DNA of 64,000 nt from Dethiobacter alkaliphilus (GCA_016841605.1 JAENYV010000009.1:18718-82717), one strand, 5' to 3'. Shown: positions 3,228-26,429, numbered from the stretch's first letter. Notes: generated by a model not told the origin, from the sequence alone. Translations and numbers: made by a program.

Positions 3228-3500
3228 TTGTAATCCTCCTTAAAATTTTTTGACTCTTGTAATTATCAATTTTAACTTGATTATTAAATTAATTATATAT
3301 AACCAAAAAGATGGAAACAATATCCTATTTTAACAAATAATTTTTATGAATTTGTACTTTATCTACAAACCCGCTTATGGAGAATATCTTTAGGTACACA
3401 AATATCTGCTTTTGTCAGCCTCACTCACTTTTTTATAATAGCCTCCTGAAGAGAAATATAAATAAAATCGCTATACCCTCCTCTCCTTGATTACAAGATT

Positions 3501-5768: not shown

Positions 5769-5950
5769 CCCAATACCCCCTTAACTTTCTTCTGTGCAAC
5801 TCAGGCAAATATTATGTTTTATCACAGAAATAAGGGCTTTCTCATAGCATCACTGGTTTTTCTTAAATACCATGCTTGGGGATTATTTTGCTCGGAATAA
5901 CCCCCAAGCACAAAGACAAATCCTGTTGCATCTTAGTTGTAAATGTTAAA

Positions 5951-7306: not shown

Positions 7307-7541
7307 GGCCTAATTTTCCCTCATCCAATTCGAGAATTATCATAGAGCTTCCCACGTCCATCTCATCCCATTCTTTGGCAACTATTTGTTTTACTTTACC
7401 TTCATATTCTGAGATAACAGCCAATTCAGTTTTCATGCAGTTAATAACAGCAACCGTCTGCCCTTTTTTAACAAATTCTCCTTCACTTACAGTAACCCTG
7501 GCCACAAGTCCAGGCATGTGTGCATTAATTGTTGCTTCCAT
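7299..7541 (-). CDS. Small biotinyl/lipoyl-domain carrier protein (BCCP-like, 80 aa)
   Basis: Biotin-attachment-like ...VAVINCMKTELAVISEYEGKV...; SD aaggagag; sits directly upstream of the biotin carboxylase. Confidence 0.7.
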   Translation of the reverse strand: MEATINAHMPGLVARVTVSEGEFVKKGQTVAVINCMKTELAVISEYEGKVKQIVAKEWDEMDVGSSMIILELDEGKLGHV

Positions 7542-7560
7542 TGTTTACCTCTCCTTTTCT

Positions 7561-9243: not shown

Positions 9244-9407
9244 TTTTTTCCTCCTTTATCTAATTTGCCAAATCTAAATATTAATTTGAAAATTTTAACA
9301 TTTTTTTGTCTGGCTAATGGGTTAATCACCTCCTAAGAAACTTTTTGCTTTCAAGTGGAGCAAATTTTTTACTAATACAAAATTTTTTAGTTTTCTTGCA
9401 AGTTAAA

Positions 9408-10427: not shown

Positions 10428-10608
10428 TTTTATCCTCCTTTTTTCTAAAAAGTAAGATATAACAATTAATTTTTGAGACATTTTATTCAATAAAGCTATA
10501 CTTAATAGTAGCAATTATTATTTTAATCAGCAATATTTTACTTCTACAATATTATTGATAAAATAACATCATGACTTAAACAATATGAAATATACGGGAG
10601 TATGTTTT

Positions 10609-11979
10609 TTATGCATAGTTACTCCTTAGCGCATTGGCAGCCAACATCTCGTCTACGTCTCGATTCGTCATAGAAAAGCGCAAAAGAAACTCCTCATCAG
10701 ATACATTATCGCCAATCCCCATTTGTTTGCGAATCTCTTTTACTGAAGGTTGCTCAAATTCTTTATTAAGAAAGTCCTTTGCCCGGGGAAGACTGGTTAT
10801 TTTATCAAGTACATTGGGCTCTATCGGCATATTGTGTCCACCAAACCAACCTGCCACATATTGAAATATGCTATCAGAAACCTGTTTGTAACGTTCACCG
10901 GATATAACGTTCATAGTAGCTTGAGTACCCACAAACTGTGAAAATGGAGTAACCATAATAGGATATCCCAGTTCTTGCCGCACTTGAGCGACTTCTTCCA
11001 GAACCTCTTCTAAGCGATGACCCATCTTTACTTCCGAAAGATGGCGTTTAAGAGTTGTAAGCATCCCACCGGGAACCTGATGCTTGTAATAAGAAAGGTC
11101 ATGTTCTACCGGCATTCCGGAAGGGCGCCCTTCCTTTTCGGCAATCGTTTTAAAGTAAATCGACATTTCGTCTAAGACTTCTTTATTACACTTGACCTTA
11201 TATCCCATATGAGTAGCATTATGCATAATATTCAGCGCTGACGGCAAAGAAGAACCATATGCCAGGGGGGGAACAGCTACATGAAAGGTTTTGACACCAA
11301 GTTTCATCGCTTCTAAATAGCAAAGGGGAGCCAACCCGGTATTGCAATGTGAGTGGATTTCAAGGGGAAGTTTGCCGATATTCTGTTGAATTACAGGTAT
11401 TAGAGTCTTGACACGATCGACTGTAAGCAACCCTCCTGAGTCTTTGAGGTAAACAATATCGACATCAGGACAACCAGCTACCTGTTTTGCTTTTTCGGCA
11501 AAAAATTCATCCGTATGCACAGGACTAATGGAGAACGGCAGCGCTATCATAACCTCATCAATGCCGGCTTCTTTAGCCATTCGAGCTGTACGGAAAATAA
11601 GGTTCATATCATATGCGGCGTCCAATATCCAGACGCGCCTTATTCCACAAGTTTTAACCGTTTTGAGTACCAATTCCTGGATCGATTCAGGAATGCGACC
11701 AAAACCGATGAAGCGCCTTCCGGTTGTTCCAAAACTTAAGATAGTGTTAGGCATTGCCTTGGCGCATATCCTGATCATTTCCCAAGGGTTTTCCTTATGA
11801 AAGTGTACCAGTACTCCCATATTAATACTTGAGGCAAAATCTATTGCCCTAAAACCAACCCTGTCTATTACCGGAGCAATAGGGAGAATCATACCGGTTT
11901 TAAGTCCCGTAGCATCCCACAAACTTTGATTGCCGTCTCGTATTGTTGTATCAACTAAACAAATCTCATCTCTGCTCAC
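10609..11979 (-). CDS. Carboxyltransferase, pyruvate-carboxylase 5S / oxaloacetate-decarboxylase-alpha-like TIM barrel, no biotinyl domain
   Basis: 456 aa; DTTIRDGNQSLW, carbamyl-lysine-like YLKDSGGLL and an HxH motif (EIHSHCNTG); GTG start with SD aaggaggt. Confidence 0.7.
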   Translation of the reverse strand: MSRDEICLVDTTIRDGNQSLWDATGLKTGMILPIAPVIDRVGFRAIDFASSINMGVLVHFHKENPWEMIRICAKAMPNTILSFGTTGRRFIGFGRIPESIQELVLKTVKTCGIRRVWILDAAYDMNLIFRTARMAKEAGIDEVMIALPFSISPVHTDEFFAEKAKQVAGCPDVDIVYLKDSGGLLTVDRVKTLIPVIQQNIGKLPLEIHSHCNTGLAPLCYLEAMKLGVKTFHVAVPPLAYGSSLPSALNIMHNATHMGYKVKCNKEVLDEMSIYFKTIAEKEGRPSGMPVEHDLSYYKHQVPGGMLTTLKRHLSEVKMGHRLEEVLEEVAQVRQELGYPIMVTPFSQFVGTQATMNVISGERYKQVSDSIFQYVAGWFGGHNMPIEPNVLDKITSLPRAKDFLNKEFEQPSVKEIRKQMGIGDNVSDEEFLLRFSMTNRDVDEMLAANALRSNYA

Positions 11980-12034
11980 GAAAAACTACCTCCTTTTTAA
12001 GCGGCCTTGCATCTTTGAAAGTAATTTTTAGCCT

Positions 12035-13294
12035 TTACTGATCAGACGGACCCTTCTTTGCTGAGGCTTTTCCGACTACTTCGTTAAAAGCGGTAACTAT
12101 TGCTTTGGCAAAAGCCTGAGAATCAATATTCTCTTCAACCTCGACCACTTCAACCTCTGCCTTCAGATTCTTTTTAAGAATATCAACAAACAGCTGAATA
12201 GAGTGCCGATCGTACAGGCTACTTCCTTCCTTTTCAATAGAGAGCCACCCTTTCATGGGGACAAGAAACTTTGTTGGACCTACTGCTTTGTTTAATTTTT
12301 CTGCGTATAATAAAGTAATATCCTCTAATTCCTGAATATTTAAATATACAGTTACCCTTCGATCATCCATAAAATTGTGTTTACGCTTCGCAAGCTCAGG
12401 AGCTAGTTCCTCAGGAGTAAATCCCACTCGGGATAGTGTATTGACCCCAGCAGGAGCTATTACTTGTGGAATACCTTTCTCCCCGGCTACCTCCAGCCTT
12501 CTCGACCAAGAAGTCCGGGAGCCCCCAAATTTTTGGTTAGTTATACTGGAAGGAACCAGGTCAATAACACCACAGAAATAACCGTCCTCAATTAGTTTTT
12601 CCATGGCTATTTCCGGAGTACCGGCGGCATGAAAACGTATAAGCTCATATTTTTCAGAGAGTGCATCACTTATGAATCGGGCACAGTTATCCACATATCC
12701 AAAGACTGACATGGCGACCATAGGTAAATCATTACCGGACTTAAGGTTGGAAATTTCGCCGTCAACCATACCGCTAATAGCCCCCGCCGCCCTATTTAGC
12801 TGAGCTTTTAGCAGGAAATTAAGGCCTCCAATGTCGATTAGAGAGTGCATCAAGGTTATCCCTGAAGTACCGAAGACTCTATGAGAACCCGGCATAGAAG
12901 CTCCACTTGAGACAATAAGCTTAGGTATGCTAAAGGGCATATTCTCCATTATCTCCGAAGTCATGATCATACTGCTCATTCCTCCAATGGACATCATCCC
13001 TTCTACCTCTCCATTACGACAGAGCTCATCCAATTTTTCCGCTGCCCCTTTTATCATTATCTCTGTTACTTTTTGCCTCTCCTGCGAATTCCTCAAACTT
13101 TCTACTTGTACTCCGGCGGTATGAGCTACTTCTTTCGCAGTAATATCTGCTTTTAGTCTGGGCTCTCCCCCGGTACCGATATCAATAATGAGTGGATGAT
13201 GACCTCTCCTAATTATTAGTTCCTTAAGGTAGCCCATCTCTTCTCCTTTGGTATCCAGCGTCCCGATTAGGACTATATGCTTTTTGCCAGGCAC
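12035..13294 (-). CDS. UPF0261 / Tm-1-like family protein
   Basis: 419 aa; N-terminus (M)PGKKHIVLIGTLDTKGEEMGYL typical of UPF0261; GTG start with SD aaaggag. Confidence 0.5.
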   Translation of the reverse strand: MPGKKHIVLIGTLDTKGEEMGYLKELIIRRGHHPLIIDIGTGGEPRLKADITAKEVAHTAGVQVESLRNSQERQKVTEIMIKGAAEKLDELCRNGEVEGMMSIGGMSSMIMTSEIMENMPFSIPKLIVSSGASMPGSHRVFGTSGITLMHSLIDIGGLNFLLKAQLNRAAGAISGMVDGEISNLKSGNDLPMVAMSVFGYVDNCARFISDALSEKYELIRFHAAGTPEIAMEKLIEDGYFCGVIDLVPSSITNQKFGGSRTSWSRRLEVAGEKGIPQVIAPAGVNTLSRVGFTPEELAPELAKRKHNFMDDRRVTVYLNIQELEDITLLYAEKLNKAVGPTKFLVPMKGWLSIEKEGSSLYDRHSIQLFVDILKKNLKAEVEVVEVEENIDSQAFAKAIVTAFNEVVGKASAKKGPSDQ

Positions 13295-13321
13295 TTTTAT
13301 TTACTCCTTTCTTAACTTTCC

Positions 13322-13465
13322 TTAGCTATTATGGATATGTTCTTTTTATCGGTCCGGCTGCCAACATTTCATCAACATCTTTGTCGGTCATGGAATAACG
13401 CAGAAGAAACTCCTCATCGGAAACTTTAGGGGCGATACCTATTTGTTTGCGAATCTCGCTTACCT
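13322..13465 (-). pseudogene. 3'-terminal remnant (48 codons) of a paralogous 5S-like carboxyltransferase gene
   Basis: Translates VSEIRKQIGIAPKVSDEEFLLRYSMTDKDVDEMLAAGPIKRTYP*, aligning with the C-terminus of the 10609..11979 product (…VKEIRKQMGIGDNVSDEEFLLRFSMTNRDVDEMLAANALRSNYA); upstream it breaks into AT-rich non-coding DNA. Confidence 0.7.
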
Positions 13466-13621
13466 ATTAAAAATAATATTTTAAAACTTATAAATATTAT
13501 AATTATGAGAACAATGTATAAACAATATATTTTCTTCACATTTTTTTTAACATTCGTTGTATGTTTTTCACTACGGTAATTAATAAATTCATTTTCCCAT
13601 TGTGTATTACTTACTCAACAA

Positions 13622-13665
13622 TAGAAAAAGATCCAAATCCTTAAAAACGGATTTGGATCTTTTTC
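13622..13665 (-). terminator. Rho-independent terminator (bidirectional hairpin) downstream of the HD-domain gene
   Basis: aaagatccaaatcc-ttaaaaac-ggatttggatcttt stem-loop with T-runs on both strands. Confidence 0.6.
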
Positions 13666-13694
13666 TTAAATTAAAGCCGTTAAAACCTCGTGCT

Positions 13695-14270
13695 CTACTT
13701 CTTTATAAACTTCGAACTTATTTTTTCCAGTCCTTCCGTTGCCATCACTTTGGCGTAATCCGTATATAACCACTGTTCTTTATTATCACGGAGATATTCC
13801 CAGTACTTCTGAGGTTGCATCTTAAAACGTCGGTTGTCTATATCAAACCCCCGTGGATTAAAGCGAAAAAGCTTATCTGCATCTTTAACCAGTTTCTCTT
13901 CAAGATTGCTGGGATTATTTCCTGAATCATGCGTTTCAATTATACGGCATATTTCCAGACGGTCTTTCTGCTCAAAAGAGATCCGGCATAAAATGGACGC
14001 AGCAATTTTCGCTCCTTCCACTTCATGGATACGGTTTAATTCTTTATCGGGATTACCAGGACCAAAAGCCATGTTAATTTTTTCTTCCGGTAGAGCGCTC
14101 CATCCCACATCATGTAAAAGGATCGCGGGAAGCACAACTTCCTCCCTGCCACCGTAAAACTTCAGTAATTTGACGGCATAATCGAAACATATCTCTGTAT
14201 GAACTCGATTTTCCCGTACAGCTAAGTAGGGAGCCGCCAGCTCAAATATTTCCTGATATAATTCTTTCAT
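13695..14270 (-). CDS. HD-domain phosphohydrolase
   Basis: LLHDVGW HD motif; start moved to the internal ATG (MKELYQEIF...) with SD aaaaaggaggagg. Confidence 0.6.
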   Translation of the reverse strand: MKELYQEIFELAAPYLAVRENRVHTEICFDYAVKLLKFYGGREEVVLPAILLHDVGWSALPEEKINMAFGPGNPDKELNRIHEVEGAKIAASILCRISFEQKDRLEICRIIETHDSGNNPSNLEEKLVKDADKLFRFNPRGFDIDNRRFKMQPQKYWEYLRDNKEQWLYTDYAKVMATEGLEKISSKFIKK

Positions 14271-14454
14271 AAGTTCTCTTCCTCCTCCTTTTTCTCTCAA
14301 TACAATTATAATCTTACAAATATTAATGCGATTTAGCAAGTTTTATTTTTTCTTTACCCGTTTAGGTAAATTGATCGAAAAAAAACCATCCCTTTTTTAC
14401 AGGGATGATCTTTAATTCTCTTCCGCATTTTAGAACAAAATCTAATTTTTCACT

Positions 14455-16011
14455 TTAAATCATACGAAGTTTAAATCTTTGAACTTTTCCACTCGCAGTA
14501 CGCGGCAAATCGTTCATAAATTTGAACCATTTCGGGCATTTGTAATGAGCGGTTTTACTGCGTACAAAGTCCTTTAACTCTTGTTCAAGTTGAAGAGACG
14601 GCTCACAACCTTTATTAAGTACTACAAAGGCTAGAGGCTTCTCTAAATTTGATGAATCAGGTGCCCCAATAACTGCACAATCCAACACTGCATGATGTTC
14701 CAGTAGTATTCCTTCGATTTCTAAAGGAGAAACCCAAATACCACCTGATTTGAGCATATCATCGGCACGACCTGCATACCAATAAAAACCCTCATCATCC
14801 ATATAGAACTTGTCACCGGTATTAAACCACTCACCCAAAATATTTTGCTTTGATTTTTCATGGTTGTTCCAGTAGTAGGGTGTGGTACCATCGTTTTTTA
14901 CCCAGAGGGTGCCAATCTCTCCTAACGGAACTTCCTTATTGTCTTCATCAAGGAGTTTTCCCTCGAAACCTGGGAGAAGAAGACCACTACTTCCGGGCTT
15001 TACCTTCCCCGGCAAATTGGAAATGTAGATAACACCCGTATCAGTTGAACCGACACCATTAATAATATCCATACCGAATTTTTCCTTCCAGCGGTCAAAA
15101 ATTGCTTTGGGAAGGGCTTCCCCCGCAGAGATGCACAGGCGCAAAGAGGAAAAGTCAAATTCCTTTTCACTGCTTTCCAGTAGGCTAAGTATACCCGCGT
15201 AGGAAGTGGGGATACTGAAAAAAATTGTCGGTTTATACTTAGTAATAATCTCAACCAGTTTTTCCGGCTTCGGCATCTCCGATTCCAGAATTACCGCTGC
15301 ATTGCATAAAAAGGTCGTTTCGATTGAATTTTCCCTGCCATAAGAGAAGTACATCTTGGAGGCGGAAAAAAGAATATCGTCATCCCGGACCTGGAGCACC
15401 TCTCTGCAATAAGGGGGCAAATAAAAGAGCAGGTCGTGATGGAGATGGACAACCCCCTTGGGTGTACCGGTAGTACCGGAACTGTACATCCAGAAACACA
15501 TGTCATCCTTTGAAGTAAGGACGACTTCCAGGGAATCTGCTGCACCCTCGATCAGTTCCTCAAAGCTCAACTGTCCCGATTCGGGCTTACCAAGGACAAT
15601 AAAATACTTCAGGTACCTCAGATCTTCTTTTACCTCTTTTATTTTTTCTGCTATCTCTTGTGTGGTAACAAGAACCTTAGCACGGCTGTCGTTTAAATAA
15701 AAACGGTAATCTGACGGCAACGCCATCGTACTTACCGGTACTGGAACCGCCCCAATTCTCATCGCACCAAAATATACGTACAAGAATTCAGGACAATCAG
15801 GGAGAGAGAACATAACACGGTTTTCCTGCTCTACACCAAGTTCGTGCAAAACATTGCCAACGCGGTTAGCATAACTAATTAACTCCGCATAAGTAATTTT
15901 CTTTTCCTTATAGTAGACTGCTACTTTTTCCCCTCTGCCTTCCTCAATATGTCGATCCAGCAAAAAAGCTCCCAAGTTAAACTCCTGTGTAATTTCAGGC
16001 ACTCTTATCAT
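14455..16011 (-). CDS. AMP-dependent CoA ligase (aryl/acyl-CoA synthetase family)
   Basis: 518 aa; YSSGTTGTPKGV AMP-binding motif; SD ggaggag. Confidence 0.85.
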   Translation of the reverse strand: MIRVPEITQEFNLGAFLLDRHIEEGRGEKVAVYYKEKKITYAELISYANRVGNVLHELGVEQENRVMFSLPDCPEFLYVYFGAMRIGAVPVPVSTMALPSDYRFYLNDSRAKVLVTTQEIAEKIKEVKEDLRYLKYFIVLGKPESGQLSFEELIEGAADSLEVVLTSKDDMCFWMYSSGTTGTPKGVVHLHHDLLFYLPPYCREVLQVRDDDILFSASKMYFSYGRENSIETTFLCNAAVILESEMPKPEKLVEIITKYKPTIFFSIPTSYAGILSLLESSEKEFDFSSLRLCISAGEALPKAIFDRWKEKFGMDIINGVGSTDTGVIYISNLPGKVKPGSSGLLLPGFEGKLLDEDNKEVPLGEIGTLWVKNDGTTPYYWNNHEKSKQNILGEWFNTGDKFYMDDEGFYWYAGRADDMLKSGGIWVSPLEIEGILLEHHAVLDCAVIGAPDSSNLEKPLAFVVLNKGCEPSLQLEQELKDFVRSKTAHYKCPKWFKFMNDLPRTASGKVQRFKLRMI

Positions 16012-16029
16012 AACGTTTCTCCTCCTAAC

Positions 16030-17343
16030 TTAAAATTTTGCATAGTTCGGCAAAAACAATGCTATCTTTGGGAATAGAATCACTAATAGCGACGTAATTA
16101 TGAGAGAAAGTATGAAGGGATAGATGCCTTTAAAGATATGCTCCAGGGGTATCTGCGGCGCTATACCCTTAACTACATAAACATTACTGCCTACAGGTGG
16201 TGTTATTACGCCTAACTGTGCAACCAGCACGATAACTACTCCAAACCAGATAGGGTCCAAACCGAGGTGGAGGATAACCGGGTAGAGGACGGGGACAAGA
16301 AGAGTAATAAGGGCCATAGAATCAATGAAACATCCGCCTAATATAAATATTATGACGATAATTACAGATATAGTAGTTGCCGAAAAGGGAAGTGATTCAA
16401 CCCAATCTGCGATAATAAACGGAATGGTTGTTACAGCCATAAATTTGCCGAAAATAGTAGCTCCGGTAATAAGGCAGATAATCATAGCGGCCGTCCGCAA
16501 ACCATCTTTGATAAAATAAGCGAACCTGGGCCATGTTATCTGGCGATGCACCAATCCTATTATTATCGTCGCAAATGCCCCAATACCGGCCCCTTCAACC
16601 GGACTAAACCACCCAAGGAACATTCCCCCAATGACCAGAAGGAAAATAATAACAGCATCAGATATGCCAAGCAATGATTTTAGTTTTTGCCTCCAGCTTC
16701 TGCGTTCGCCCGGCGGTCCCATAATGGGGTTAAAACGACAAATAAGATGAACTGTGAGGGCAAACAGCAGGGCTAAGATCAAGCCCGGGAAAATCCCTGC
16801 CACAAAAAGTTTTCCGATAGACTGTTCTGTAAGAAAGCCATAGACAATAAAAACGGTACTGGGAGGTATAAGAATACCGAGGGTGCCGCCTGAAGCAACA
16901 ACTCCTGCAGCCAGAGTATCATGATAATTATATTTCTTCATTTCAGGAAGCGCTATTCTACCCATTGTAGCTGCCGTAGCATTTGTAGAACCGCAAATTG
17001 CAGCAAAACCTGAACACCCTATAATAGTAGCAATACCCAAACCACCCCTTAGATCACCAACTACTTTGTAGGCACTATCATAAAGCCTTTCACCAATACC
17101 GGCGATAAAAGCAAAAGAGCCCATCAGTACAAACATCGTAATAGCACAAAGGGAATAATTATAAAACTGCCCCAAAAATTCCCGCGCCAACATGGCTGTT
17201 CCCGCCGACCACGATGTTATATAACAAAACCCTACCAAACCCACAAAGGCCATGGCAAAAGCTATGTGCATCCTCAGAAAAAAGAGAACAAGAAGCAGAA
17301 CTATCCCCGCAATACCGACTTCAATTGGACTCATTTTTTGCAC
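16030..17343 (-). CDS. dctM: TRAP transporter large permease (DctM family)
   Basis: 437 aa, polytopic membrane protein with DctM-type N-terminus. Confidence 0.8.
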   Translation of the reverse strand: MQKMSPIEVGIAGIVLLLVLFFLRMHIAFAMAFVGLVGFCYITSWSAGTAMLAREFLGQFYNYSLCAITMFVLMGSFAFIAGIGERLYDSAYKVVGDLRGGLGIATIIGCSGFAAICGSTNATAATMGRIALPEMKKYNYHDTLAAGVVASGGTLGILIPPSTVFIVYGFLTEQSIGKLFVAGIFPGLILALLFALTVHLICRFNPIMGPPGERRSWRQKLKSLLGISDAVIIFLLVIGGMFLGWFSPVEGAGIGAFATIIIGLVHRQITWPRFAYFIKDGLRTAAMIICLITGATIFGKFMAVTTIPFIIADWVESLPFSATTISVIIVIIFILGGCFIDSMALITLLVPVLYPVILHLGLDPIWFGVVIVLVAQLGVITPPVGSNVYVVKGIAPQIPLEHIFKGIYPFILSLIITSLLVILFPKIALFLPNYAKF

Positions 17344-17821
17344 CTCTTCCTGTTGCGAATAAGGTAATAATTTCGTTCAAAAAGAAAAGTAATGCGGCAG
17401 CAGAACCAAAAGCAATAGCAAAAGCAAAAGGATAAAAGGGAATAAACGCCCCGGAACTTATCTCCCCCGCTTCTTTCAAAGAAATTCCATAAAAATAGCT
17501 CTTATAGCTAAGAATAGCAAAGAAAATCAATTCTAATACCAACATAGTCAAATTTATCCACTTTTGAGCGGAACCGGGCAAACGATCGACTACAAACTCA
17601 ACTGCAATATGTCGTTTATCCAACAGATCAATGGCAATTGCAAAGGATATTGCTACTATTTGAGCAAAACCTATCATTTCTGTCGCACCGCGGAGAGGCG
17701 CAAGAAACAACTTGGCACCGACTACATTTATAAATGTAACGGCTATCATGACCACAACTCCTGCAACGCCTATCCATTCAATCGTTTTAATGCATTTGTC
17801 AGAAAATACCTTAAATTTCAT
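17321..17821 (-). CDS. dctQ: TRAP transporter small permease (DctQ family)
   Basis: 166 aa, four hydrophobic segments; overlaps the dctM start. Confidence 0.7.
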   Translation of the reverse strand: MKFKVFSDKCIKTIEWIGVAGVVVMIAVTFINVVGAKLFLAPLRGATEMIGFAQIVAISFAIAIDLLDKRHIAVEFVVDRLPGSAQKWINLTMLVLELIFFAILSYKSYFYGISLKEAGEISSGAFIPFYPFAFAIAFGSAAALLFFLNEIITLFATGRGAKNESN

Positions 17822-17942
17822 TATACAGCATCCTTTTTAAAAAAATTCCGGAATATTAAAACTGCTATGTTTAATTCTTAATACACTCCGGGCCATCACT
17901 CTATCAGTGACGGCCCTTTGAATGCATTTAATAATCTCTATA

Positions 17943-19106
17943 TTAATACTCCTGGTAAACCTCAGGCGGACCCGTCTCAGATTTTATCCCGAGCTCAATC
18001 TGTTTCTTAAGCCAGTATTCGGTTCTTTCTTTAATAAAGTCCAACCATTCATTTATTTCATTTTCAGAATAACCATTAGACACCATGTTAGCCTTATAAT
18101 CATCAATAACCTTATCCGCTTTCTCCTTCCATATCGGAAGTTCTGCATCCGGTACTACATATATTTCAAAATTTTCATCAATAGCATATTGTTTTCCCAT
18201 AATTCCTATGTCATTCCACATTTTGGCAAGGTCATCTACGAACTCTTCTTCCACGTATTTATTAATTATCTCCTGAATATCTGCGGGCAGCTTGTTCCAG
18301 GTGTCTTTGTTCATTGTAATATAAAATGTGTAAACATTGCTGGTTTGCCATACCTCTGTTATATTATTAACAACCTCTCCATATTTGTAGGTCTGCATCG
18401 TTTCATAGGGAATTAACAATCCGTCAATTATGTTTTTTGCTAAGAAATCGTAAGCTTCAGGCATGGGTAATGCACGGGCTACTCCTCCCATTGATTCGAG
18501 AAGCTGCGCTATATATCCTGTACCCCTTAGAGTAAGACCTTTCAGATCATCAGGCTTTTTAATCGGAGTATTAATAGTTATAATATTATTAAGGCTTGAA
18601 GTAGTAAGTGTGAGGATATGGGTATCATCGAATTCCTGGGGCTTAAATTTATTATAAAAATCGGCAGCAACGTGATTTGCTACCCATCCATTTGGAAAAC
18701 CAATAGGAAGATCAAGAACCTGCGTTACTGGAAAACGCCCAAAGGTATAAGCTAAATTTGAATATCCAATATCTGCAATTCCTTCAACAACACCATCGTA
18801 CATTTTATCCGCAGCAAGTAACATACTTCCCGGAAAGAACTCAAATTTAACTCTTCCATCGGTAAGCCCCTCAATATCTTCAGCAAACTTTACAAGTGCT
18901 TTGCTCTGATAAGCTTCCCCAGGATTATAAGTAGCCATTCTAAGAGTTGTGACACTATCGGGAGCAGGCTTTGTATCCTCAGTATTCTCCGTATTACTTT
19001 GGCCGCCAACATCCCCCGCCGGTTGAGAGGCACATCCAGCGAACGCCACCATCACCAATAAACTCAGAATTAACAAACTTAAAACAAAAATTCTTTTAGC
19101 CATCAT
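17943..19106 (-). CDS. dctP: TRAP transporter solute-binding lipoprotein (DctP family)
   Basis: 387 aa; signal peptide + lipobox AFAGC; completes the P-Q-M gene order. Confidence 0.75.
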   Translation of the reverse strand: MMAKRIFVLSLLILSLLVMVAFAGCASQPAGDVGGQSNTENTEDTKPAPDSVTTLRMATYNPGEAYQSKALVKFAEDIEGLTDGRVKFEFFPGSMLLAADKMYDGVVEGIADIGYSNLAYTFGRFPVTQVLDLPIGFPNGWVANHVAADFYNKFKPQEFDDTHILTLTTSSLNNIITINTPIKKPDDLKGLTLRGTGYIAQLLESMGGVARALPMPEAYDFLAKNIIDGLLIPYETMQTYKYGEVVNNITEVWQTSNVYTFYITMNKDTWNKLPADIQEIINKYVEEEFVDDLAKMWNDIGIMGKQYAIDENFEIYVVPDAELPIWKEKADKVIDDYKANMVSNGYSENEINEWLDFIKERTEYWLKKQIELGIKSETGPPEVYQEY

Positions 19107-19540
19107 GTTAACCCTCCTTTTATTTCAAAATAAACCCCACTTCTTTACCCATCTTGATAACAACAGCTTTGGTTAAACCTCGAGGATTTTCATAATCGAA
19201 ATCTTTGCACCCCCTCTGAGAGAACTTGTCAAATACAGCGATATGACCAGGCTTGTAAAGCAAAATTATAGGTAAAATTTAATTCTAATATTAATCAATC
19301 GGGCGAGAACGGAATAAAATAATATTTCTAAGGTTCTAACAATTTAAAATAGAGTATCAGGGAAATACAAACTAAACAGCAAGAGGCTCCACAAAACTCC
19401 TCGTAATACAGAAAAATTTTATTTGTTGAACTATATTCAATATATCACCTATTATTTAACTTGACAATTATTCATTTTTATCTTTATGTTTTAAATAATT
19501 TGTTTTAGACTAAAATATCTCATATTTTTTAAATTTAATT

Positions 19541-19700
19541 ATTAATTCCTAAATATTACGCTATTATTCGCTAGTTGACTAATAAACAAAATATGCTTTA
19601 ATTGAACTTTATTCAGATTAAATATCGTTAAATCCTTTTCCCATATTTGCAACTTGACGAAGAAACAAAAGGCATTAACTGAACTTGGCTAATAATTTAT
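19541..19700 (+). repeat. Paralogous copy (~80% identity over ~150 bp) of the tetR promoter/operator block at 24590..24760, not followed by a gene
   Basis: Shared strings attacgctat, gttgacta, ...cccatatttgcaacttgacgaa(g/t)aaacaaaaggcat...; contains TGAACTTTATTCAG. Confidence 0.6.
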
Positions 19701-19710
19701 TTTTACTATT

Positions 19711-19753
19711 CTCCAGCCCTCCTAATCTCTTCATAGTAGTAGGAGGGCTGGAG
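19711..19753. other. Perfect 13-bp inverted repeat with a 17-nt loop, no T-tract
   Basis: ctccagccctcct-N17-aggagggctggag, just downstream of the reductase-like operon. Confidence 0.5.
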
Positions 19754-19854
19754 AAATCAGCTTCAGCAACAGCTTTATGTTCCAACTTTTGGTTCTTTTA
19801 CATCTCCGCACGAATGGATCGCTTCGCAGCTTGCTTCTGATGATTTTAGCGGTA

Positions 19855-20700
19855 TCAGGCGCTGTTTCGAAGCAAGAACGCATCCGCAAATAGAGCAGCG
19901 CCTAAAGCTACAGTTAACGCAGGATCCCATTCAGACTTAGGAGCCAACCTGCTTATCTTCAATATGCTTTCCAATGAATTTATTATTCCTTGATTTTTTG
20001 CCAGTCCTCCAATGATGACAAGATCTTTTTTCACCCCTGCTCTGTCTGCCAAGGTGCTGATCCTCTTGGCCATAGCATGGTGGTAACCTGCGATTACTTC
20101 TTCGAGCGGTTCTTTGCTTCTAATTAAATCCAGAGCCTCGGATTGAGCATAGATAGCGCAAAAGTCACTTAATTGTGCGGACTTATCAGATCGAAGGGCA
20201 ATGTTTCCTATCTCAGTCACTTCTTTATTCACCAAATCGGCAAAAGTTTCTATCGAACGTCCAATGCCCGCAGCACATTTATCATTCCAAAGGAAAGCTG
20301 TTACTCTGCTCTTTTCAGTAACGTGAATTACTTTGCAGCTTTGACCTCCGACATCAAGCACCGTACGCACGGATGGCCCCCAAATGTGGACCGCCCCTGC
20401 GGCTCCACACGCAATTTCAGATATGGTTTTATGGGCAAAGGGAACCTGCTTCTTTCCGCAACCGGTCCCGACGATGCATTGAATATTTTCCAACGTTAAA
20501 TCGGTTTTATCCAAAGCAGCATTTATCGCTCTTATAGCTGATTCTTCAGGTATGCGTGTTTTAACTTGAGAATAGATATATGGTTGTCCGTCAACCAGTA
20601 TTATAACTTTGGAATTCACTGCTCCGATATCTACTCCAGCTACCACCGTTTTGGCCTTTGTCCAATCTATACTCAGGTTTATGGAAACGTGTTCACTCAT
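19855..20700 (-). CDS. BadF/BadG/BcrA/BcrD-family ATPase (HgdC-type activator / BCR ATP-binding subunit) 2
   Basis: N-terminal ...VAGVDIGAVNSKVII... acetate/sugar-kinase fold; start at the ATG overlapping the upstream stop (ATGAGTGA), SD ggaggtggg. Confidence 0.75.
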   Translation of the reverse strand: MSEHVSINLSIDWTKAKTVVAGVDIGAVNSKVIILVDGQPYIYSQVKTRIPEESAIRAINAALDKTDLTLENIQCIVGTGCGKKQVPFAHKTISEIACGAAGAVHIWGPSVRTVLDVGGQSCKVIHVTEKSRVTAFLWNDKCAAGIGRSIETFADLVNKEVTEIGNIALRSDKSAQLSDFCAIYAQSEALDLIRSKEPLEEVIAGYHHAMAKRISTLADRAGVKKDLVIIGGLAKNQGIINSLESILKISRLAPKSEWDPALTVALGAALFADAFLLRNSA

Positions 20701-21493
20701 TTTTCCCACCTCCACAGGTTATCACCGCACCTATTGCACCTACATACTCCGGCAGGTTCAATACTTTGACATCTTCTTTGAGCAAAACCGGAAGGTGATT
20801 CATGAGTGCTTTAGATTTGGCTAATCCTCCGGCGACAACGATCTCTTGTGTTAGGGTTATGGTTGTGCACATTGCTGCAACACGTTGAACGATGAATCTC
20901 AGGATTGCATCTGCCACATCAGTGATTTCCACTCCCTGACACAGCAGATCAATAGCTTCTGATTCAGCGGATAGGGCACAAGTAATGGCAACAGACACAT
21001 TCTTGGTGGATTTAAGTGCCAATTCGGACAGTTCCTCTTCGCTTACTCCGAAAGCTTTGACCATGGTACTGTAAAAAATACCCATGCCGTCAGCGCATTT
21101 ATCATTTTGAATAACGTCGAGAAGCCCCCCATTGCTGTCATAGTGGACAGCTTTAGTTATATTCCCACCAATGTCGATCACTGTTCTTGAATTCTTATTC
21201 AGGAAGAAAGCACCCCTGGCATCCGCAACATGTTCGGGCACACTTCCGACCAGAGCCAATGTCGGTATATTAATCGTCTCTCCAAAAATGCCGGTACATA
21301 CAATCCCGGTTAATTGGCTCAGCGGGAGTCCGGTATTGTATAAAGCATTATTCAACGCCTTTTCAGCCGCATCTGCCGGATTAAATCCTGTGGGTACTAC
21401 AGCATATCCGAGGATTTCTTCTTCCCGCATGAGTACGGCCTTGGTATTAACATGGCCTGCATCTATTCCGGCTAGAAGTTTTCTGTTATTCAT
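20693..21493 (-). CDS. BadF/BadG/BcrA/BcrD-family ATPase 1
   Basis: MNNRKLLAGIDAGHVNTKAVLM...; second HgdC-like ATPase. Confidence 0.75.
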   Translation of the reverse strand: MNNRKLLAGIDAGHVNTKAVLMREEEILGYAVVPTGFNPADAAEKALNNALYNTGLPLSQLTGIVCTGIFGETINIPTLALVGSVPEHVADARGAFFLNKNSRTVIDIGGNITKAVHYDSNGGLLDVIQNDKCADGMGIFYSTMVKAFGVSEEELSELALKSTKNVSVAITCALSAESEAIDLLCQGVEITDVADAILRFIVQRVAAMCTTITLTQEIVVAGGLAKSKALMNHLPVLLKEDVKVLNLPEYVGAIGAVITCGGGKNE

Positions 21494-22650
21494 GACGCCA
21501 CCCCCGTTATTATATTTACAAAGGTTTCCAACTGCGTCTGAAATTGAGTTATAGGCAGGGTAGTATCAAGCTCAAGCTCGAGCGAAGGAATTCCCAAATT
21601 GTTCAAGATAGGCTTCAAGCCAACAATATCCATTGGTTGAGGGCTGCAAAATCTCTGATAGAGAAGCACTACTCCATCCGGCTTGAAGTCCTCAATAAAC
21701 TGTTGAATGAACCTGAACCTTTTTTTCTCTCCGGTTCCGGGGAAGTTGTCCTTGGCAGGACATGGAATTCTAGCGATGTATGCTTCGGCGATTGTTTGAA
21801 GCTTATCAGTTCTATCTTCAGGTACCTCGAACCAGAAGTAACGGGTTGCCGTACAGGTATCAACGAAAACCAGGCTTGCGCTGTTGTCTAGTTTTTCCAT
21901 TAAATCGAAAATTCTGAGATCGTCACACGCACCTCCTGATACCATCAACCTCACTCCCGGCAGATTTTTGCGCGGCACGGATTGCAATTTTTGAATCAGT
22001 TCCTCAAGTAGTTGATTGAATTCCTTCTTTTCCATTAACTGGGAAGCAAGAGTAACTATAGCAACTTCCGCTCCGGTGATCGGAGATTCTTTATATCTGA
22101 GGAACTCCCAGAGTTGTATAAGAAGCCTTCTGGTGTGATTATAAATTTTGATGGCCCTTTCAATGTCCTCATCTGTGATAGATTTATGGACAATATCCTC
22201 CAGGTATTGTTTGAATTCTTTAAAAGATTCCACTATAAAACCGGCGGCCGGCTTGGTGTGGATGATATGAGGATACGATATGAGGAAGCTTTTTTCCTTG
22301 AATCCTGCAAATCTGACCCATGTATTAAAAGCTTCACCCATGTGTATGCAGCTGCTGCCGGTGACAATCAGGTCAAAAAAATCATAATACGTCAGGCCCC
22401 GGTAAGCGCAATCATGCGAAAAGGAGCAATATGTTTCATGTATATAACTTCTTGTCATTGCTTGGGAATCGTGGGAACTAAGAACTCTTACCGGTACAAT
22501 CCCGGCAGCATATAAAATTTCCTCCGGAACATGGGTGCACATATATCCCGCTACTAAATGTCCTTTACTTTGAAGTGATTGGGCATATTCCTGCGTATGG
22601 TCTGTTATGTGCTGGAAATATTCGATTATGGAGTTGGAATCCTTCATCAT
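21490..22650 (-). CDS. 2-hydroxyacyl-CoA dehydratase / benzoyl-CoA reductase family subunit (HgdB/BcrB-like)
   Basis: 386 aa; start ATG overlaps the upstream stop (TAATG); operon context with two activator-type ATPases. Confidence 0.6.
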   Translation of the reverse strand: MMKDSNSIIEYFQHITDHTQEYAQSLQSKGHLVAGYMCTHVPEEILYAAGIVPVRVLSSHDSQAMTRSYIHETYCSFSHDCAYRGLTYYDFFDLIVTGSSCIHMGEAFNTWVRFAGFKEKSFLISYPHIIHTKPAAGFIVESFKEFKQYLEDIVHKSITDEDIERAIKIYNHTRRLLIQLWEFLRYKESPITGAEVAIVTLASQLMEKKEFNQLLEELIQKLQSVPRKNLPGVRLMVSGGACDDLRIFDLMEKLDNSASLVFVDTCTATRYFWFEVPEDRTDKLQTIAEAYIARIPCPAKDNFPGTGEKKRFRFIQQFIEDFKPDGVVLLYQRFCSPQPMDIVGLKPILNNLGIPSLELELDTTLPITQFQTQLETFVNIITGVAS

Positions 22651-23969
22651 TAGCAAACACCTCCTTTCTTATGCGCCTCCATTAGCTGCACAAACAACTC
22701 TGTTTTGCGCTTGGCGCCCGGCAAATCCATTTTTCGCACATCTACCTGGTCGCTATCATATTCAACAGTCGGAATTTTGCTTTTAAACATGCGCTGCATC
22801 CCCACGTAACCGTTCCTAAAATCGGTTTCGCAACTACGTGAAGGCGCCAACAAAAGCCCGTCTGCATTATATTCCGTAATCATGGCCTGAGCCATGGATT
22901 CCAGCGCCCACCAGGACCGTACTCCTTGCCAGGTAGGCCAACCCAGCACTATTTTAACCAATTCGGTTATCGCTTTTCTTCTTGTAGATAAATCCAGTTC
23001 ATCTACCCAGGTTGGATCAATGGGTTCCCATGTCCATTTTCCGTCTACAATACCCTTAAAATTGCCGGCCGTACCAAAGGTATAGACCGAGGCTACGATC
23101 TCGGCTCCCGCGTCTCGAAGGATTCTGGACATTTCCGGATGTCCGTACGTATGTGCCAATCCAAAATAAACTATTCTGTGGCGTTGATCCGGAGAGACAC
23201 TTTGTCCGGTCTCAACCATGTGTCTCACTTCTTTAAGCAGTCCTTCGTATAAGCGCACAGTTTCATCGGTTGTCCTGTCCACCACAGCCGGCGGGAATAA
23301 AGCTATCAGCCGGCGCTCGTCCAACGGAGCGGGGTTATGCATATTGAGTGCACAGATATTACCCCAGAGAACCAAAACCTTGATTTCGTTTCTGACTGCC
23401 TTAATAAACAACTCATCCGAGAATTCCCTGCCTGTGACTCTCTGCATCCAATGAATGCCCTCTTCTATCTGGTTGCTCACATAGTTTACGATTTTAGGAT
23501 TTTTTTCTGCATTACCCCCTCCGATCATATCTATTGCATAAATGGGTATACCGCCCATAAGCCTGGAGATTTCCTGGTACCATTTTGAATGTTGACTGCA
23601 CAAGTGCGTAGTCCACATAAAGTCCGGTTTGGGATATCCGTCAGTGATTGTTCCATCGGTAATACCTATTTTATCGCGGACTACCTCCCCAACGAACAGC
23701 TTCAAGTAACTACAGGAGTGAAAACCCAAACCCGCGGTTTCAGCAGCAATAATGTCGTCACGAGCTTCTTTAGGAAATGTCCCTGCTTTCGATGCGGCGT
23801 GCGGCTCACCGCCGATTACAAATACATCCTCACCCAACCCTTTAAGGGGAGCTAAAGGACTCCATGTTGAACCCATGCAACGAAGGCCTCCATAACCCTC
23901 CACATAATTTCTATAGCATGTACTCTGATAATCCTTAAATGCACCCCAACTTTTTATGTTATATGCCAT
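22650..23969 (-). CDS. 2-hydroxyacyl-CoA dehydratase / benzoyl-CoA reductase family subunit (HgdA/BcrC-like)
   Basis: 439 aa; first gene of the 4-gene operon; SD aggagga. Confidence 0.6.
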   Translation of the reverse strand: MAYNIKSWGAFKDYQSTCYRNYVEGYGGLRCMGSTWSPLAPLKGLGEDVFVIGGEPHAASKAGTFPKEARDDIIAAETAGLGFHSCSYLKLFVGEVVRDKIGITDGTITDGYPKPDFMWTTHLCSQHSKWYQEISRLMGGIPIYAIDMIGGGNAEKNPKIVNYVSNQIEEGIHWMQRVTGREFSDELFIKAVRNEIKVLVLWGNICALNMHNPAPLDERRLIALFPPAVVDRTTDETVRLYEGLLKEVRHMVETGQSVSPDQRHRIVYFGLAHTYGHPEMSRILRDAGAEIVASVYTFGTAGNFKGIVDGKWTWEPIDPTWVDELDLSTRRKAITELVKIVLGWPTWQGVRSWWALESMAQAMITEYNADGLLLAPSRSCETDFRNGYVGMQRMFKSKIPTVEYDSDQVDVRKMDLPGAKRKTELFVQLMEAHKKGGVC

Positions 23970-24095
23970 TAAAACTCCTCCTATACTGAATAATACTCAG
24001 AACATAATCAGCAACCGAATAATAAGCTTCTCCGACAAACACACCTCCTTTCCAACCAGCTGACAACTTGAATATATAAATAAAAACTACATTCA

Positions 24096-24192
24096 AAGTT
24101 GTGCCGGCATTAATTTACATTAACTACACAACTAACATGCCCGATTAATGAAAACAACTTTTAAACTACATTCATTGAACTACATTCAGTTT
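24096..24192. promoter_or_regulatory. Three direct repeats AACTACATTCA (at 24096, 24165, 24181) upstream of the reductase-like operon; the last forms CTGAA-N5-TTCAG
   Basis: Seen directly; lies in the divergent tetR intergenic region. Confidence 0.45.
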
Positions 24193-24727
24193 ATATAATA
24201 TAATTTAACTTGTCAAACAACAAATAATAGCGTTAGATGTAATAATATATAGAAATATTAATTAATAAAGCTTTATTTACCTATATTTAATGTTTTTAGC
24301 CAATAAATATAAGTATTATTATTTATATATGAATATAATATGATGAATGATATTCATTTTTTTCAAATAGTCATGATAAATGATTCCTTTTTTTAATAAT
24401 GTTATTCCTAACATAATCGACAAAAAGAGATTCCCAAGGCAGTTAAAAAGCAGGGGAATTATCGAATAAAAATATCTGGAGCTTTAAAAGCTCCAGATAT
24501 TTTTTGATCTCATGCAACCATCCCCATAACAATAGACACAGATATTAAATTTATCCATTTTTTAAGTGATTTAATTAAAGTCAAAATAACTTACTATTCT
24601 TAAATATTACTATTAATTCTTCAGCATTACGCTATGAAACGTTGGTTGACTATTAAGCAAAATATACTTAAACTGGACTTCATTCAAATTAAATACCGTT
24701 AAAACCCATTTCCCTACTATTTGCAAC

Positions 24728-24768
24728 TTGACGAATAAACAAAAGGCATATAAACTGAACATAGTTCA
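24728..24768 (+). promoter_or_regulatory. Putative sigma-A promoter (TTGACG ... TATAAA) of tetR with overlapping palindromic operator TGAAC-ATA-GTTCA
   Basis: -35/-10-like hexamers ~50 nt upstream of the tetR ATG; the 13-bp palindrome overlaps the -10/+1 region. Confidence 0.45.
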
Positions 24769-24811
24769 TAGATTAAATACTCTACCACAACGGGACAGAT
24801 CGGAGGTTAAT

Positions 24812-25414
24812 ATGAATAAAGATAATAAGTTATTAACGCAACAAGAAGAGAAAAAGATTAAAATTTTTGAAGCTGCAAGACGTATTGTTAGTGAAAAGGG
24901 TTACGAAAAAACCACAATGTTACAAATCGCCAAAGCTGCTGATGTAGCTACCGGGACAATATATGAATACTTTGAGAATAAGGAAGACCTCTTTTTAACT
25001 ATTGCTGCAGAACAATACGGGTTGTTTGACGAGGAACTTAAAATTCATTTTTCCGGAATAAAAAGTGCTTTTGAAAAAATACGAAAGTACATTTGGTTTT
25101 ATTTTTATTTTTTTCAAAAAGACCCCTTATACTCCGAAATATGGCTTCTCGTTATAAGATTAAACAAAAGCCTTGCTCAGAGTACGGCTTATCCCTGGAT
25201 CCAACAATCCGGCAAAGAAATTATTGATTTGTTAAAAGCAGGGCAGGAAGAAGGTATGATCAGGAAAGATATAGACTTATACGTAATGAGACATCTGCTC
25301 CTGGGTTCCTTAGAACATGCGATGACCCGTTGGCTTCTTAAGGGAAAAACTTATGACATGCTGTCTTATAGCGAGAAAATCTCAGATCTTATTATTGATG
25401 CTATCAAAAAATGA
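24812..25414 (+). CDS. TetR/AcrR-family transcriptional regulator
   Basis: N-terminal HTH ...KIFEAARRIVSEKGYEKTTMLQIAKAADVATGTIYEYFENKEDLF; start at the ATG with SD ggaggt (track ORF begins 28 codons earlier). Confidence 0.85.
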   Translation: MNKDNKLLTQQEEKKIKIFEAARRIVSEKGYEKTTMLQIAKAADVATGTIYEYFENKEDLFLTIAAEQYGLFDEELKIHFSGIKSAFEKIRKYIWFYFYFFQKDPLYSEIWLLVIRLNKSLAQSTAYPWIQQSGKEIIDLLKAGQEEGMIRKDIDLYVMRHLLLGSLEHAMTRWLLKGKTYDMLSYSEKISDLIIDAIKK

Positions 25415-25461
25415 AAAAGATGCGAATAACCTGGCAGAGCGATCCTTGTAAATATCAATGA

Positions 25462-25499
25462 ATTAAAAAAAACCACCCTTTTCAAGGATGGTTTTTTTT
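25462..25499. terminator. Bidirectional rho-independent terminator between the convergent tetR and pcrB-like genes
   Basis: aaaccaccctt-ttca-aggatggttt hairpin flanked by A-run/T-run. Confidence 0.55.
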
Positions 25500-25694
25500 A
25501 TACATCTCTTTATGAAATAACTTTCGCTCAACTTTCTTCTAATTGTTTCTATTGATTCCGCCGTTGAAGACTACAATTGGAAATAAAAAAAGCATCCTAC
25601 GATAAGCACTAATTTTCTCTTCATCTTATCCCATTTCGTAAATGAATGCTTTTTTTACACACATGTAGACAGATTTATTCTCAAAAAATTATGA

Positions 25695-26429
25695 TCAGTC
25701 TTTTAGAGCGCTGAGAATAGATCGCAACCTTTCACGATATCCGGCATTTTCAATAATAGTTCCTGTGACAACAACATCTGCCCCTGCCTGCCTTACCCGT
25801 CTGGCATCTACAGCAGTACGAATTCCGCCGCCGACTATAAGCGGTATAGAAAGTTCTTTTTTCACAGCGCGGATCATACCCGCAGGGACAGGTTGGGCAG
25901 CGCTTATCCCGGCTTCCAAATAAATATAATTCATACCAAAGAGTTCGGCCGCCACGGCATAACTTGCCGCCATCCAATAGTTATCTCTGGGGATCAAATC
26001 AATATCGTCTGCTTCCCCTATTTTCATCCCCGGTTCAACAACCAAGTAACCGACAGAAATTGTTTCAATTTCCATTCTTTTTAAAACAATCGCTGCCTTG
26101 GACTGTCCACCACTAACAAAATTGCTGTTTCTGGCATTTAAAAGACTGGAAAACAATAATGCATCGAAGGAAAAGCAAAGCGCCTCGGCACCGGATGGAG
26201 AATAAACTACAGGTATTGATATCTTATCTTTAATAGAATTTGTCGTATCCAAAAGATTCTTTTGGGAAAGACCGCTTATACCGGCAACCAAGATCAGATC
26301 GCTTCCCACTTCCTGAGCAGTAAGGGCCAGCCTCCCTGCCACATCGGGAGATTGTTTCATCGGGTCAATCAGAGTAATATGCACGGTACCATTTTTAATT
26401 TTTTCTTTTAAATAGTTTGATATCAACAT
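25695..26429 (-). CDS. pcrB: PcrB/GGGP-synthase-family prenyltransferase (heptaprenylglyceryl-phosphate-synthase-like)
   Basis: ...LIVGGGIRTAVDARRVRQAGADVVVTG...; start set to the internal ATG (MLISNYLKEK) with SD ggagaagg. Confidence 0.65.
   Translation of the reverse strand: MLISNYLKEKIKNGTVHITLIDPMKQSPDVAGRLALTAQEVGSDLILVAGISGLSQKNLLDTTNSIKDKISIPVVYSPSGAEALCFSFDALLFSSLLNARNSNFVSGGQSKAAIVLKRMEIETISVGYLVVEPGMKIGEADDIDLIPRDNYWMAASYAVAAELFGMNYIYLEAGISAAQPVPAGMIRAVKKELSIPLIVGGGIRTAVDARRVRQAGADVVVTGTIIENAGYRERLRSILSALKD

Follow-up and report, generated by a model that had tools for sequence, protein, structure and literature searches.

Organization of the locus

In a window of 64,000 nt from Dethiobacter alkaliphilus (GCA_016841605.1 JAENYV010000009.1:18718-82717; "the window" denotes this whole stretch), a short palindrome, TGAAY-N3-RTTCA, recurs in two AT-rich spacers beside tetR, a gene for a FadR/YsiA-like regulator, and an operon for an aryl-CoA reductase-like enzyme. 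Sequence comparisons indicate that the FadR-like TetR repressor encoded beside it very probably binds this palindrome. The genes concerned are the following.

24812-25414, plus strand: tetR, encoding a 200-aa TetR-family regulator, FadR/YsiA-like
19855-23969, minus strand: reductase-like operon of four genes, class I (bzd-type) aryl-CoA reductase-like, divergent from tetR
22650-23969, minus strand: BzdO-like subunit, HGD-D
21490-22656, minus strand: BzdN-like subunit, HGD-D
20693-21493 and 19855-20715, minus strand: BcrAD/BadFG ATPase subunits
14455-19106, minus strand: proposed second target operon, encoding a TRAP transporter and a CoA ligase; next downstream of the reductase operon on the same strand
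17943-19106, minus strand: DctP, TRAP transporter
17321-17821, minus strand: DctQ, TRAP transporter
16030-17343, minus strand: DctM, TRAP transporter
14455-16011, minus strand: benzoate-CoA ligase family protein (TIGR02262, 536 bits against a cut-off of 375)

The regulator has an N-terminal TetR_N domain (PF00440; 61.8 bits against a cut-off of 24, residues 18-62), which places it in the TetR family, and a C-terminal YsiA-like TetR_C_4 domain (PF08359; 41.3 bits against a cut-off of 21, residues 67-196). Over the full length, the nearest solved structures are those of B. subtilis FadR (1VI0/3WHB) and B. halodurans FadR (5GP9/5GPC), with E values of ~1e-22. Against the NCBIfam FadR model (NF053878), which has a cut-off of 200 bits, it scores 111 bits, which makes it a relative rather than an equivalog of Bacillus FadR. 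The recognition-helix residues V45, A46, G48, T49, Y51 and Y53 are invariant across 17 homologs and common to Bacillus FadR. An exact look-up of this TetR found nothing on record, and its context was taken from homologs, the closest of which occur in Dethiobacter, Dethiobacteria metagenome-assembled genomes (MAGs), unassigned Bacillota and one Syntrophomonadaceae MAG.

A palindrome of fixed spacing in the two spacers

An initial annotation had described a recurring operator-like motif, TGAAC-N(3-5)-TTCA, and all three elements that it quoted are present. The variable spacing is not borne out: all copies share a single spacing and belong to one palindrome class, TGAAY-N3-RTTCA (equivalent to TGAAC-N4-TTCA), with the operator consensus A-y-TGAAY-N3-RTTCA-r-T. 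There are five strict sites (19427-19439, 19603-19615, 24176-24188, 24344-24356 and 24756-24768) and three one-mismatch copies (at 23987, 24162 and 24674), the latter all in the second spacer. The sites quoted earlier are therefore real, but the perfect sites at 19427-19439 and 24344-24356 and all three one-mismatch copies had been missed. The 13-bp palindrome TGAACATAGTTCA, reported over the -10/+1 region of tetR, lies exactly at 24756-24768, on TTGACG-N17-TAAACT. The site given as ~24180 is found at 24176-24188, and the direct repeat AACTACATTCA described around it does exist in three exact copies (at 24085, 24164 and 24178), but the site reads TTGAACTACATTCAG, the quoted first base C being wrong. 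Likewise, the site given as ~19597 is present in the paralogous block, but its true position is 19603-19615.

The motif is strongly over-represented. In the 64 kb, TGAAYNNNRTTCA has five sites against 0.38 expected, a number that none of 100 shuffles reached, and TGAACNNNNTTCA has five two-strand matches against 0.77 expected, which come down to four sites, the palindrome at 24756 scoring once per strand. All five strict sites lie within the AT-rich spacers 19107-19854 and 23970-24811, and the strict motif is absent from the other 62.4 kb of the window. Because the G+C content of the two spacers is only 27-31%, they were also shuffled alone, separately from the window; 0.012 strict and 0.36 one-mismatch sites are then expected, against 5 and 8 observed, and none of 5000 spacer-only shuffles attained the observed counts. 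The initial annotation had made its proposal depend on enrichment beyond chance in an AT-rich background, and such enrichment is found.

Over the whole window, 16 sites match with up to one mismatch, against 9.8 expected. The one-mismatch matches outside the spacers (1015, 1144, 5323, 11222, 22989, 25921, 34159 and 42853) are about as numerous as chance predicts and were set aside; those that were checked overlap open reading frames, 22989 and 25921 lying inside genes and 1015 over a start codon. This last match, TGAACATTGTTTA at 1015-1027, covers the start codon and ribosome-binding site of a minus-strand gene that runs off the window start.

Predicted promoters in register with the putative operator

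The repeated unit would be composed of a promoter, TTGACx-N17-TAAACT, and an operator, the -10 hexamer sharing its final T with the start of the motif. Six copies aligned along the direction of transcription read TTGACx-N17-TAAACT/TATATT and then directly GAAY-N3-RTTCA, and an independent promoter scan finds four units, in each of which the promoter match ends exactly on motif base 1. The promoter-like units and other features of the spacers are the following.

24728-24768, plus strand: tetR P2, TTGACG-N17-TAAACT (24728-24756), then the perfect 13-bp palindrome TGAACATAGTTCA (24756-24768)
24646-24686, plus strand: tetR P1, TTGACT-N17-TAAACT (24646-24674), then the one-mismatch operator TGGACTTCATTCA (24674-24686)
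24162-24216, minus strand: Pbcr, TTGACA (24216-24211)-N17-TAAACT (24193-24188), a 10/12 match, then tandem operators
19427-19467, minus strand: Ptrap, TTGTCA (19467-19462)-N17-TATATT (19444-19439) with a TG extension, a 10/12 match
24344-24356: central-spacer site, perfect TGAATGATATTCA within the 15-bp palindrome ATGAATGATATTCAT; the equivalent in the sister locus L001 is TGAATTAAGTTCG, with one mismatch
23987-23999: one-mismatch site TGAATAATACTCA, adjoining the ribosome-binding site of the first reductase gene
24468-24504: bidirectional terminator-like insulator between Pbcr and the tetR promoters, a perfect inverted repeat of 18 bp with an A-run and a T-run at its flanks

The P2 operator begins at 24756, on the last base of the -10 hexamer, and 44 nt separate it from the tetR ATG (24812); an identical TGAACATAGTTCA is present at 9945 in L001, the corresponding locus of a 98%-identical sister strain. 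P1 and P2 are arranged in tandem, 82 bp apart, and the P1 cassette is absent from the L001 bcr-tetR spacer. At Pbcr, the tandem operators on the minus strand, TGAATGTAGTTCA (24176-24188) and TGAATGTAGTTTA (24162-24174), are 14 bp apart, and both are perfect in L001 (9642 and 9656). Ptrap, which is paralogous to Pbcr, is directed at dctPQM and the CoA ligase gene, and its operator, TGAATATAGTTCA at 19427-19439 (TGAACTATATTCA), follows the -10 hexamer on the minus strand. The palindromic motif therefore overlaps the -10/+1 regions of tetR, Pbcr and Ptrap. Among 25 sites from 10 loci, 15 have a TAnnnT whose final base is motif base 1, while any other upstream offset accounts for 0-5.

The sites at 23987, whose L001 counterpart at 9468 is the perfect TGAATATTATTCA, and at 24344 may contribute cooperativity or a roadblock. 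The AACTACATTCA copy at 24085 is probably not a site; only its left arm fits the operator (TGAATGTAGTTTT, minus strand), and it is not conserved in L001. The hairpin at 24468-24504 has a fold z-score of -4.95 and is absent from L001. A further promoter-like sequence on the plus strand, TTGAAC-N18-TATAAT (24175-24204, a 10/12 match), has a -35 element that coincides with the Pbcr operator, and could give rise to a ~290-nt transcript running through the 24344 site to this hairpin; the predicted transcript region holds no open reading frame with a ribosome-binding site and no Rfam match. In an Rfam scan of 19000-25700 (E<=1), all matches were sub-threshold chance matches, so the spacers contain no known riboswitch or small RNA, and no small open reading frame in the spacers has a convincing start or ribosome-binding site. 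In the dctP leader, a 59-aa gene is called in L001, and the window equivalent has no ATG start.

The motif beside orthologous regulators

Homologs of the TetR protein were found and their loci fetched, yielding 10 loci that are independent of the window and whose TetR proteins are 41-75% identical to it. When all perfect 5-N(1-7)-5 palindromes were counted in these loci (95 kb), TGAAC-N3-GTTCA (7 against 0.07 expected) and TGAAT-N3-ATTCA (7 against 0.13 expected) ranked first and second. The placement of the motif in the sister locus and in other loci is as follows.

L001 (TetR 98%, same synteny): six sites at equivalent places
L003-5 (TetR 68%): TTGACA-N18-TAAACT-GAACATGGTTCA before the gene for a BamB-like aldehyde:ferredoxin oxidoreductase (AFOR), with Bam-like genes nearby
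L012 and L006-8 (TetR 56%): TTGACA-N17-TATATT-GAACGTAGTTCA before tetR, and two perfect palindromes before a molybdopterin oxidoreductase gene
L011 and L013-L016 (TetR 43-70%): motif before or near tetR and neighbouring genes
L018 and L019 (Pelotomaculum, TetR 41-43%): in L019, motif before the gene for an ADP-forming acyl-CoA synthetase, itself located ahead of tetR

In Dethiobacter sp. SURF_39 (TetR 75%), tetR is directly divergent from dctPQM and the ligase gene, a reductase gene cluster lies ~9 kb off, and the dctP promoter reads TTGACA-N17-TAAACT-GAACTTGGTTCG. The motif thus tracks orthologs of this TetR into quite different gene neighbourhoods, which supports the initial proposal of a TetR-type repressor, and tetR is the sole gene common to all motif-bearing loci. 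The comparative evidence gives strong support to recognition of the palindrome by this TetR clade. In all loci the target operons encode CoA-ester-forming enzymes, and CoA-ligase or CoA-synthetase genes are found in every ortholog locus. In the clade with 54-56% TetR identity, the motif also occurs on the tetR start codon (ATGAACAATATTCAA, encoding MNNIQ; L012 6008, L013 4041, L014 6002 and L015 6005), where it would be an operator across the start of translation or else a coincidence of the coding sequence.

Relation to characterized repressors

The FadR protein of Thermus thermophilus HB8 (TTHA0101; 3ANG/3ANP) is a TetR-family, acyl-CoA-responsive repressor that acts on several operons via promoter sites. 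In vitro, it prefers TTRNACYNRGTNYAA (PMC5597230). Its 15-bp pseudopalindrome has the same AC-N3-GT geometry as the sites described here, TGAAC-N3-GTTCA corresponding to positions 2-14 (PMC5597230). By comparison with the published consensus TTRNACYNRGTNYAA, this AC-N3-GT spacing is found at the 24756 site and at seven ortholog-locus sites; sites with the ATTCA arm depart from the Thermus consensus at one position per arm, and many sites are of the TGAAT/ATTCA type. The similarity of the proteins is distant (3ANG matches the window TetR with an E value of 4e-10), and the Thermus targets are fad/fab genes, whereas those here are aryl-CoA reductase-like, TRAP and benzoate-CoA-ligase-family genes. 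In the window, no fad genes adjoin the operators, and the adjacent targets do not form a regulon of the Bacillus FadR type.

Bacillus FadR/YsiA has a recognition helix, VAxGTIYxYFxNKED, almost identical to that of the window TetR, and both proteins have the YsiA-like C-terminal domain. It binds GATGAATGAATACTCATTCAT as a dimer of dimers, with G42 and Y45 contacting bases, and shares the half-site TGAAT/ATTCA with the sites here (PMC5397183). The Bacillus repressor is released by acyl-CoA. However, the Bacillus box is 21 bp long and consists of two overlapping inverted repeats, whereas the operator here is a palindrome of 13-17 bp that occurs singly or as a tandem pair spaced by 14 bp; the window sites do not match a 21-bp FadR box of the GATGAATGAATACTCATTCAT type. 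The Bacillus regulon, which serves fatty-acid beta-oxidation, also differs from the targets here.

The nearest functional analogue is MbdR of Azoarcus/Aromatoleum sp. CIB, a TetR repressor of the 3-methylbenzoate mbd cluster that is induced by 3-methylbenzoyl-CoA (PMC4424350). Like the regulator proposed here, MbdR controls a class I benzoyl-CoA-reductase-type operon, its own gene and the promoter for a CoA ligase; the operators extend over -10/+1, several are located at the promoter of the regulator itself, and the inducer is an aryl-CoA (PMC4424350). The likeness is one of function: the MbdR operator ATAC-N10-GTAT has no match in the window, so that an MbdR-type operator was rejected, MbdR is not among the 60 best PDB matches listed for the window TetR, and its host is a betaproteobacterium, unlike the Dethiobacteria-type relatives of the window TetR.

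Predicted mechanism of regulation

TetR repressors that act by occlusion classically bind across the end of the -10 hexamer and the start site. Here, each functional operator would share its first base with the end of a sigma-70-type -10 hexamer and extend over the start site, and TetR bound there as a dimer would therefore keep RNA polymerase out. Pbcr, with its sites 14 bp apart, could hold two dimers. The local regulon would comprise three transcription units, namely tetR itself (P1/P2, negative autoregulation), the reductase-like operon (Pbcr) and the operon for the TRAP transporter and the aromatic-acid CoA ligase (Ptrap). Basal uptake and activation of the substrate would produce an aryl-CoA, upon which the repressor would leave all three promoters.

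Release of DNA binding by a CoA thioester, as in TetR repressors of the FadR, MbdR and PaaR type, is suggested by the YsiA-like domain and by the CoA-ligase or CoA-synthetase genes of every ortholog locus. The aryl-CoA that the ligase forms is the most likely inducer, given the analogies with FadR (acyl-CoA), MbdR (3-methylbenzoyl-CoA) and the ligand domain of the YsiA-like type. We estimate a probability of roughly 0.8 that TetR dimers bound at the individual operators keep RNA polymerase from P1/P2, Pbcr and Ptrap, and that an aryl-CoA from the co-regulated ligase releases them. A single TetR-type repressor for all sites, which would also regulate its own gene, had been proposed in the initial annotation and is the most likely arrangement, the motif being the top palindrome in the 10 ortholog loci. 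What the sequences show directly is the motif with its enrichment, its register with promoter-like hexamers and its persistence beside orthologs; that this TetR binds there, that it represses and what induces it are inferred. A TetR repressor that sits on the -10 box and is relieved by a CoA ester is a textbook mechanism.

The left spacer and the proposed history of the locus

The spacer at 19.1-19.85 kb, from which the initial annotation had inferred that the reductase operon is probably controlled from both ends, is instead the promoter region of the next operon, containing Ptrap and the operator at 19427-19439 that had been overlooked, together with orphaned, decaying copies of the tetR promoters. 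Besides Ptrap, it has the following features.

19575-19684, plus strand: orphan tetR promoter copies (P1' and P2'), facing the 3' end of the reductase operon
19709-19755: hairpin with a 16-bp stem, ~100 nt past the last reductase gene and before the orphan promoter copies, with no U-tract on either strand

The left and right spacers are paralogs of each other: 19512-19684 and 24583-24760 are 81% identical over 179 nt (E 1e-35), and a second block of 42 nt links 19426-19467 with 24175-24216. Direct repeats of the regulatory cassette (19414-19684 and 24163-24760) bracket the reductase operon. In the left copy, P1' reads TTGACT-N17-TTAATT and then TGAACTTTATTCA (19603-19615), its -10 hexamer being degraded; P2' reads TTGACG and so on, and is followed by the left half-site TGAAC only (19680-19684), the right half-site being lost. 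The paralogy with the tetR-proximal copy stops inside the P2 operator, at this P2' half-site. The promoter scan that detects P1 and P2 lists neither P1' nor P2'. By tblastn, no tetR pseudogene remnant is present beside the orphan promoters at 19.7 kb, and the window has a single tetR.

Both spacers would be direct repeats of one ancestral spacer between the TRAP genes and tetR, now flanking the reductase operon. The simplest history would be that the reductase operon, together with one copy of the cassette, was inserted into this ancestral spacer; such an insertion would leave direct repeats on either side and orphan the rightward promoters of the left copy. Capture of the operon by recombination between cassette copies is suggested because the direct repeats bracket the operon and the paralogy ends inside the P2 operator.

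The bcr-tetR spacer is itself ~290 nt longer than in the sister strain (~24420-24700, compared with L001 9441-10010), and the extra segment holds the 18-bp hairpin (24468-24504) and the P1 cassette. It is conceivable, if rather unlikely, that the ~270-nt promoter-operator cassette is a portable module, that the reductase operon was captured by cassette recombination and instantly entered the TetR regulon, and that the leftover copies at 19575-19684 and the extra P1 and terminator (24420-24700) serve as convergent or antisense promoters under TetR control, or as decoy operators tuning the level of free repressor.

An alternative, in line with the initial annotation, has the same TetR also working from the operon's 3' end: the 19603 site, with the orphan promoter that it follows, would exert control from downstream, for instance via a convergent or antisense transcript under TetR control or via looping between the two spacers. 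The 19603-19615 site is perfect and is kept with its TTGACT -35 in L001, and plus-strand transcripts might enter the operon past the hairpin at 19709-19755, which has no U-tract. Nevertheless, such control is improbable. The -10 of P1' is degraded (TTAATT), P2' is without half its operator, and neither appears in the promoter scan; retention in L001 carries no information, the entire spacer there being 96% identical. Moreover, the spacer has an obvious other job in carrying Ptrap with its own operator, and in SURF_39 a spacer of this kind directly separates dctP from tetR, with no reductase operon there. The hairpin at 19709-19755 may either terminate transcription or permit read-through into the dctP operon.

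Weighing of the evidence

Several points tell against regulation of the three units by this TetR, or limit how far it can be taken. First, as the two spacers are paralogous, the motif sites in the window are paralogous copies and the five strict ones are not five independent events; independence comes from the loci of other genomes. Second, promoter-like matches are not enriched in the region overall (23 against 18.9 expected), and the weight lies on the register between promoter and motif rather than on the promoter count. Part of the TAAACT signal may, moreover, be an extended operator arm (A-y-TGAA), so that the -10 calls are not fully independent of the motif and the -10 assignments are likely rather than proven. 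Third, the predicted leaders are long, ~210 nt for bcr (23970-24181) and ~325 nt for dctP (19107-19432), which makes closer, unrecognised promoters for bcr or dctP possible. Fourth, the SURF_39 spacer has just one strict and one one-mismatch site. Fifth, the reductase subunits score 207 (BzdO), 207 (BzdN) and 232 or 95 bits (BzdQ), against equivalog cut-offs of 380-454 (TIGR03190/03191/03192), that is, about half of the cut-offs or less and, for one ATPase subunit, about a quarter; the enzyme is therefore class I reductase-like and not a benzoyl-CoA reductase equivalog. The bzd-type architecture is nonetheless complete, with two HGD-D and two BcrAD_BadFG subunits by Pfam, and by sequence the operon encodes a divergent class I aryl-CoA reductase-like enzyme.

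The motif might instead be recognized by another DNA-binding protein, such as one of the LexA type or a regulator encoded elsewhere, the linkage to tetR being incidental. The Gram-positive SOS (Cheo) box bound by LexA/DinR is GAAC-N4-GTTC, which the GAAC...GTTC arms resemble, and other candidate regulators are at hand, namely a PucR/GAF regulator at 3501-5768 and a cNMP-binding regulator that adjoins tetR in SURF_39. The spacing, however, is N3 and not N4, which rules out a Cheo box: GAAC-N4-GTTC (<=1 mismatch) matches no site, with 18 occurrences against 21.7 expected, and half of the arms are GAAT/ATTC. For any protein other than this TetR, recognition is very improbable given that tetR alone is common to all motif-bearing loci and that the motif fits the operator geometry of characterized TetR-type FadR proteins (PMC5597230, PMC5397183).

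Finally, recurrence as a mere by-product of segmental spacer duplication, the 13-mers being inherited without a binding function, would agree with the 81% identity over 179 nt, the 42-nt block and the equivalent positions of 19427/24176 and of 19603/24674/24756, but is hardly credible because the TGAA/TTCA arms are kept in the paralogous blocks while central bases and flanks vary, the 24344 site is outside the repeats, and the motif recurs in loci with unrelated flanks from other families and phyla, where it is the most over-represented palindrome.

Neighbouring genes and significance

Past the ligase gene, further minus-strand genes (1650-14339) encode an HD-domain protein, UPF0261, an OadA-like carboxyltransferase, PPDK_N and PEP-utilizer proteins, as well as a biotin carboxylase, the PucR/GAF regulator mentioned above and a second AMP-ligase. 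Together, these genes may constitute an ATP-dependent carboxylation module of an aromatic pathway.

The mechanism considered here is an ordinary bacterial switch and as such not surprising; the novelty is the operator of the regulator group. The palindrome offers a concrete, testable operator for an uncharacterised clade of FadR-like TetR regulators, a site not described before for the group. This clade accompanies genes for anaerobic aromatic-acid and CoA-ester catabolism in Dethiobacteria, Pelotomaculum, Desulfosporosinus and some Desulfobacterota, the genes beside it encoding class I reductase-like enzymes, BamB-like tungsten enzymes, old-yellow-enzyme homologs and molybdopterin oxidoreductases. 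In D. alkaliphilus, the operator would tie a divergent, putative aryl-CoA reductase to its transporter and ligase, and in uncultured anaerobic degraders of aromatic compounds it would allow regulons to be predicted from sequence.

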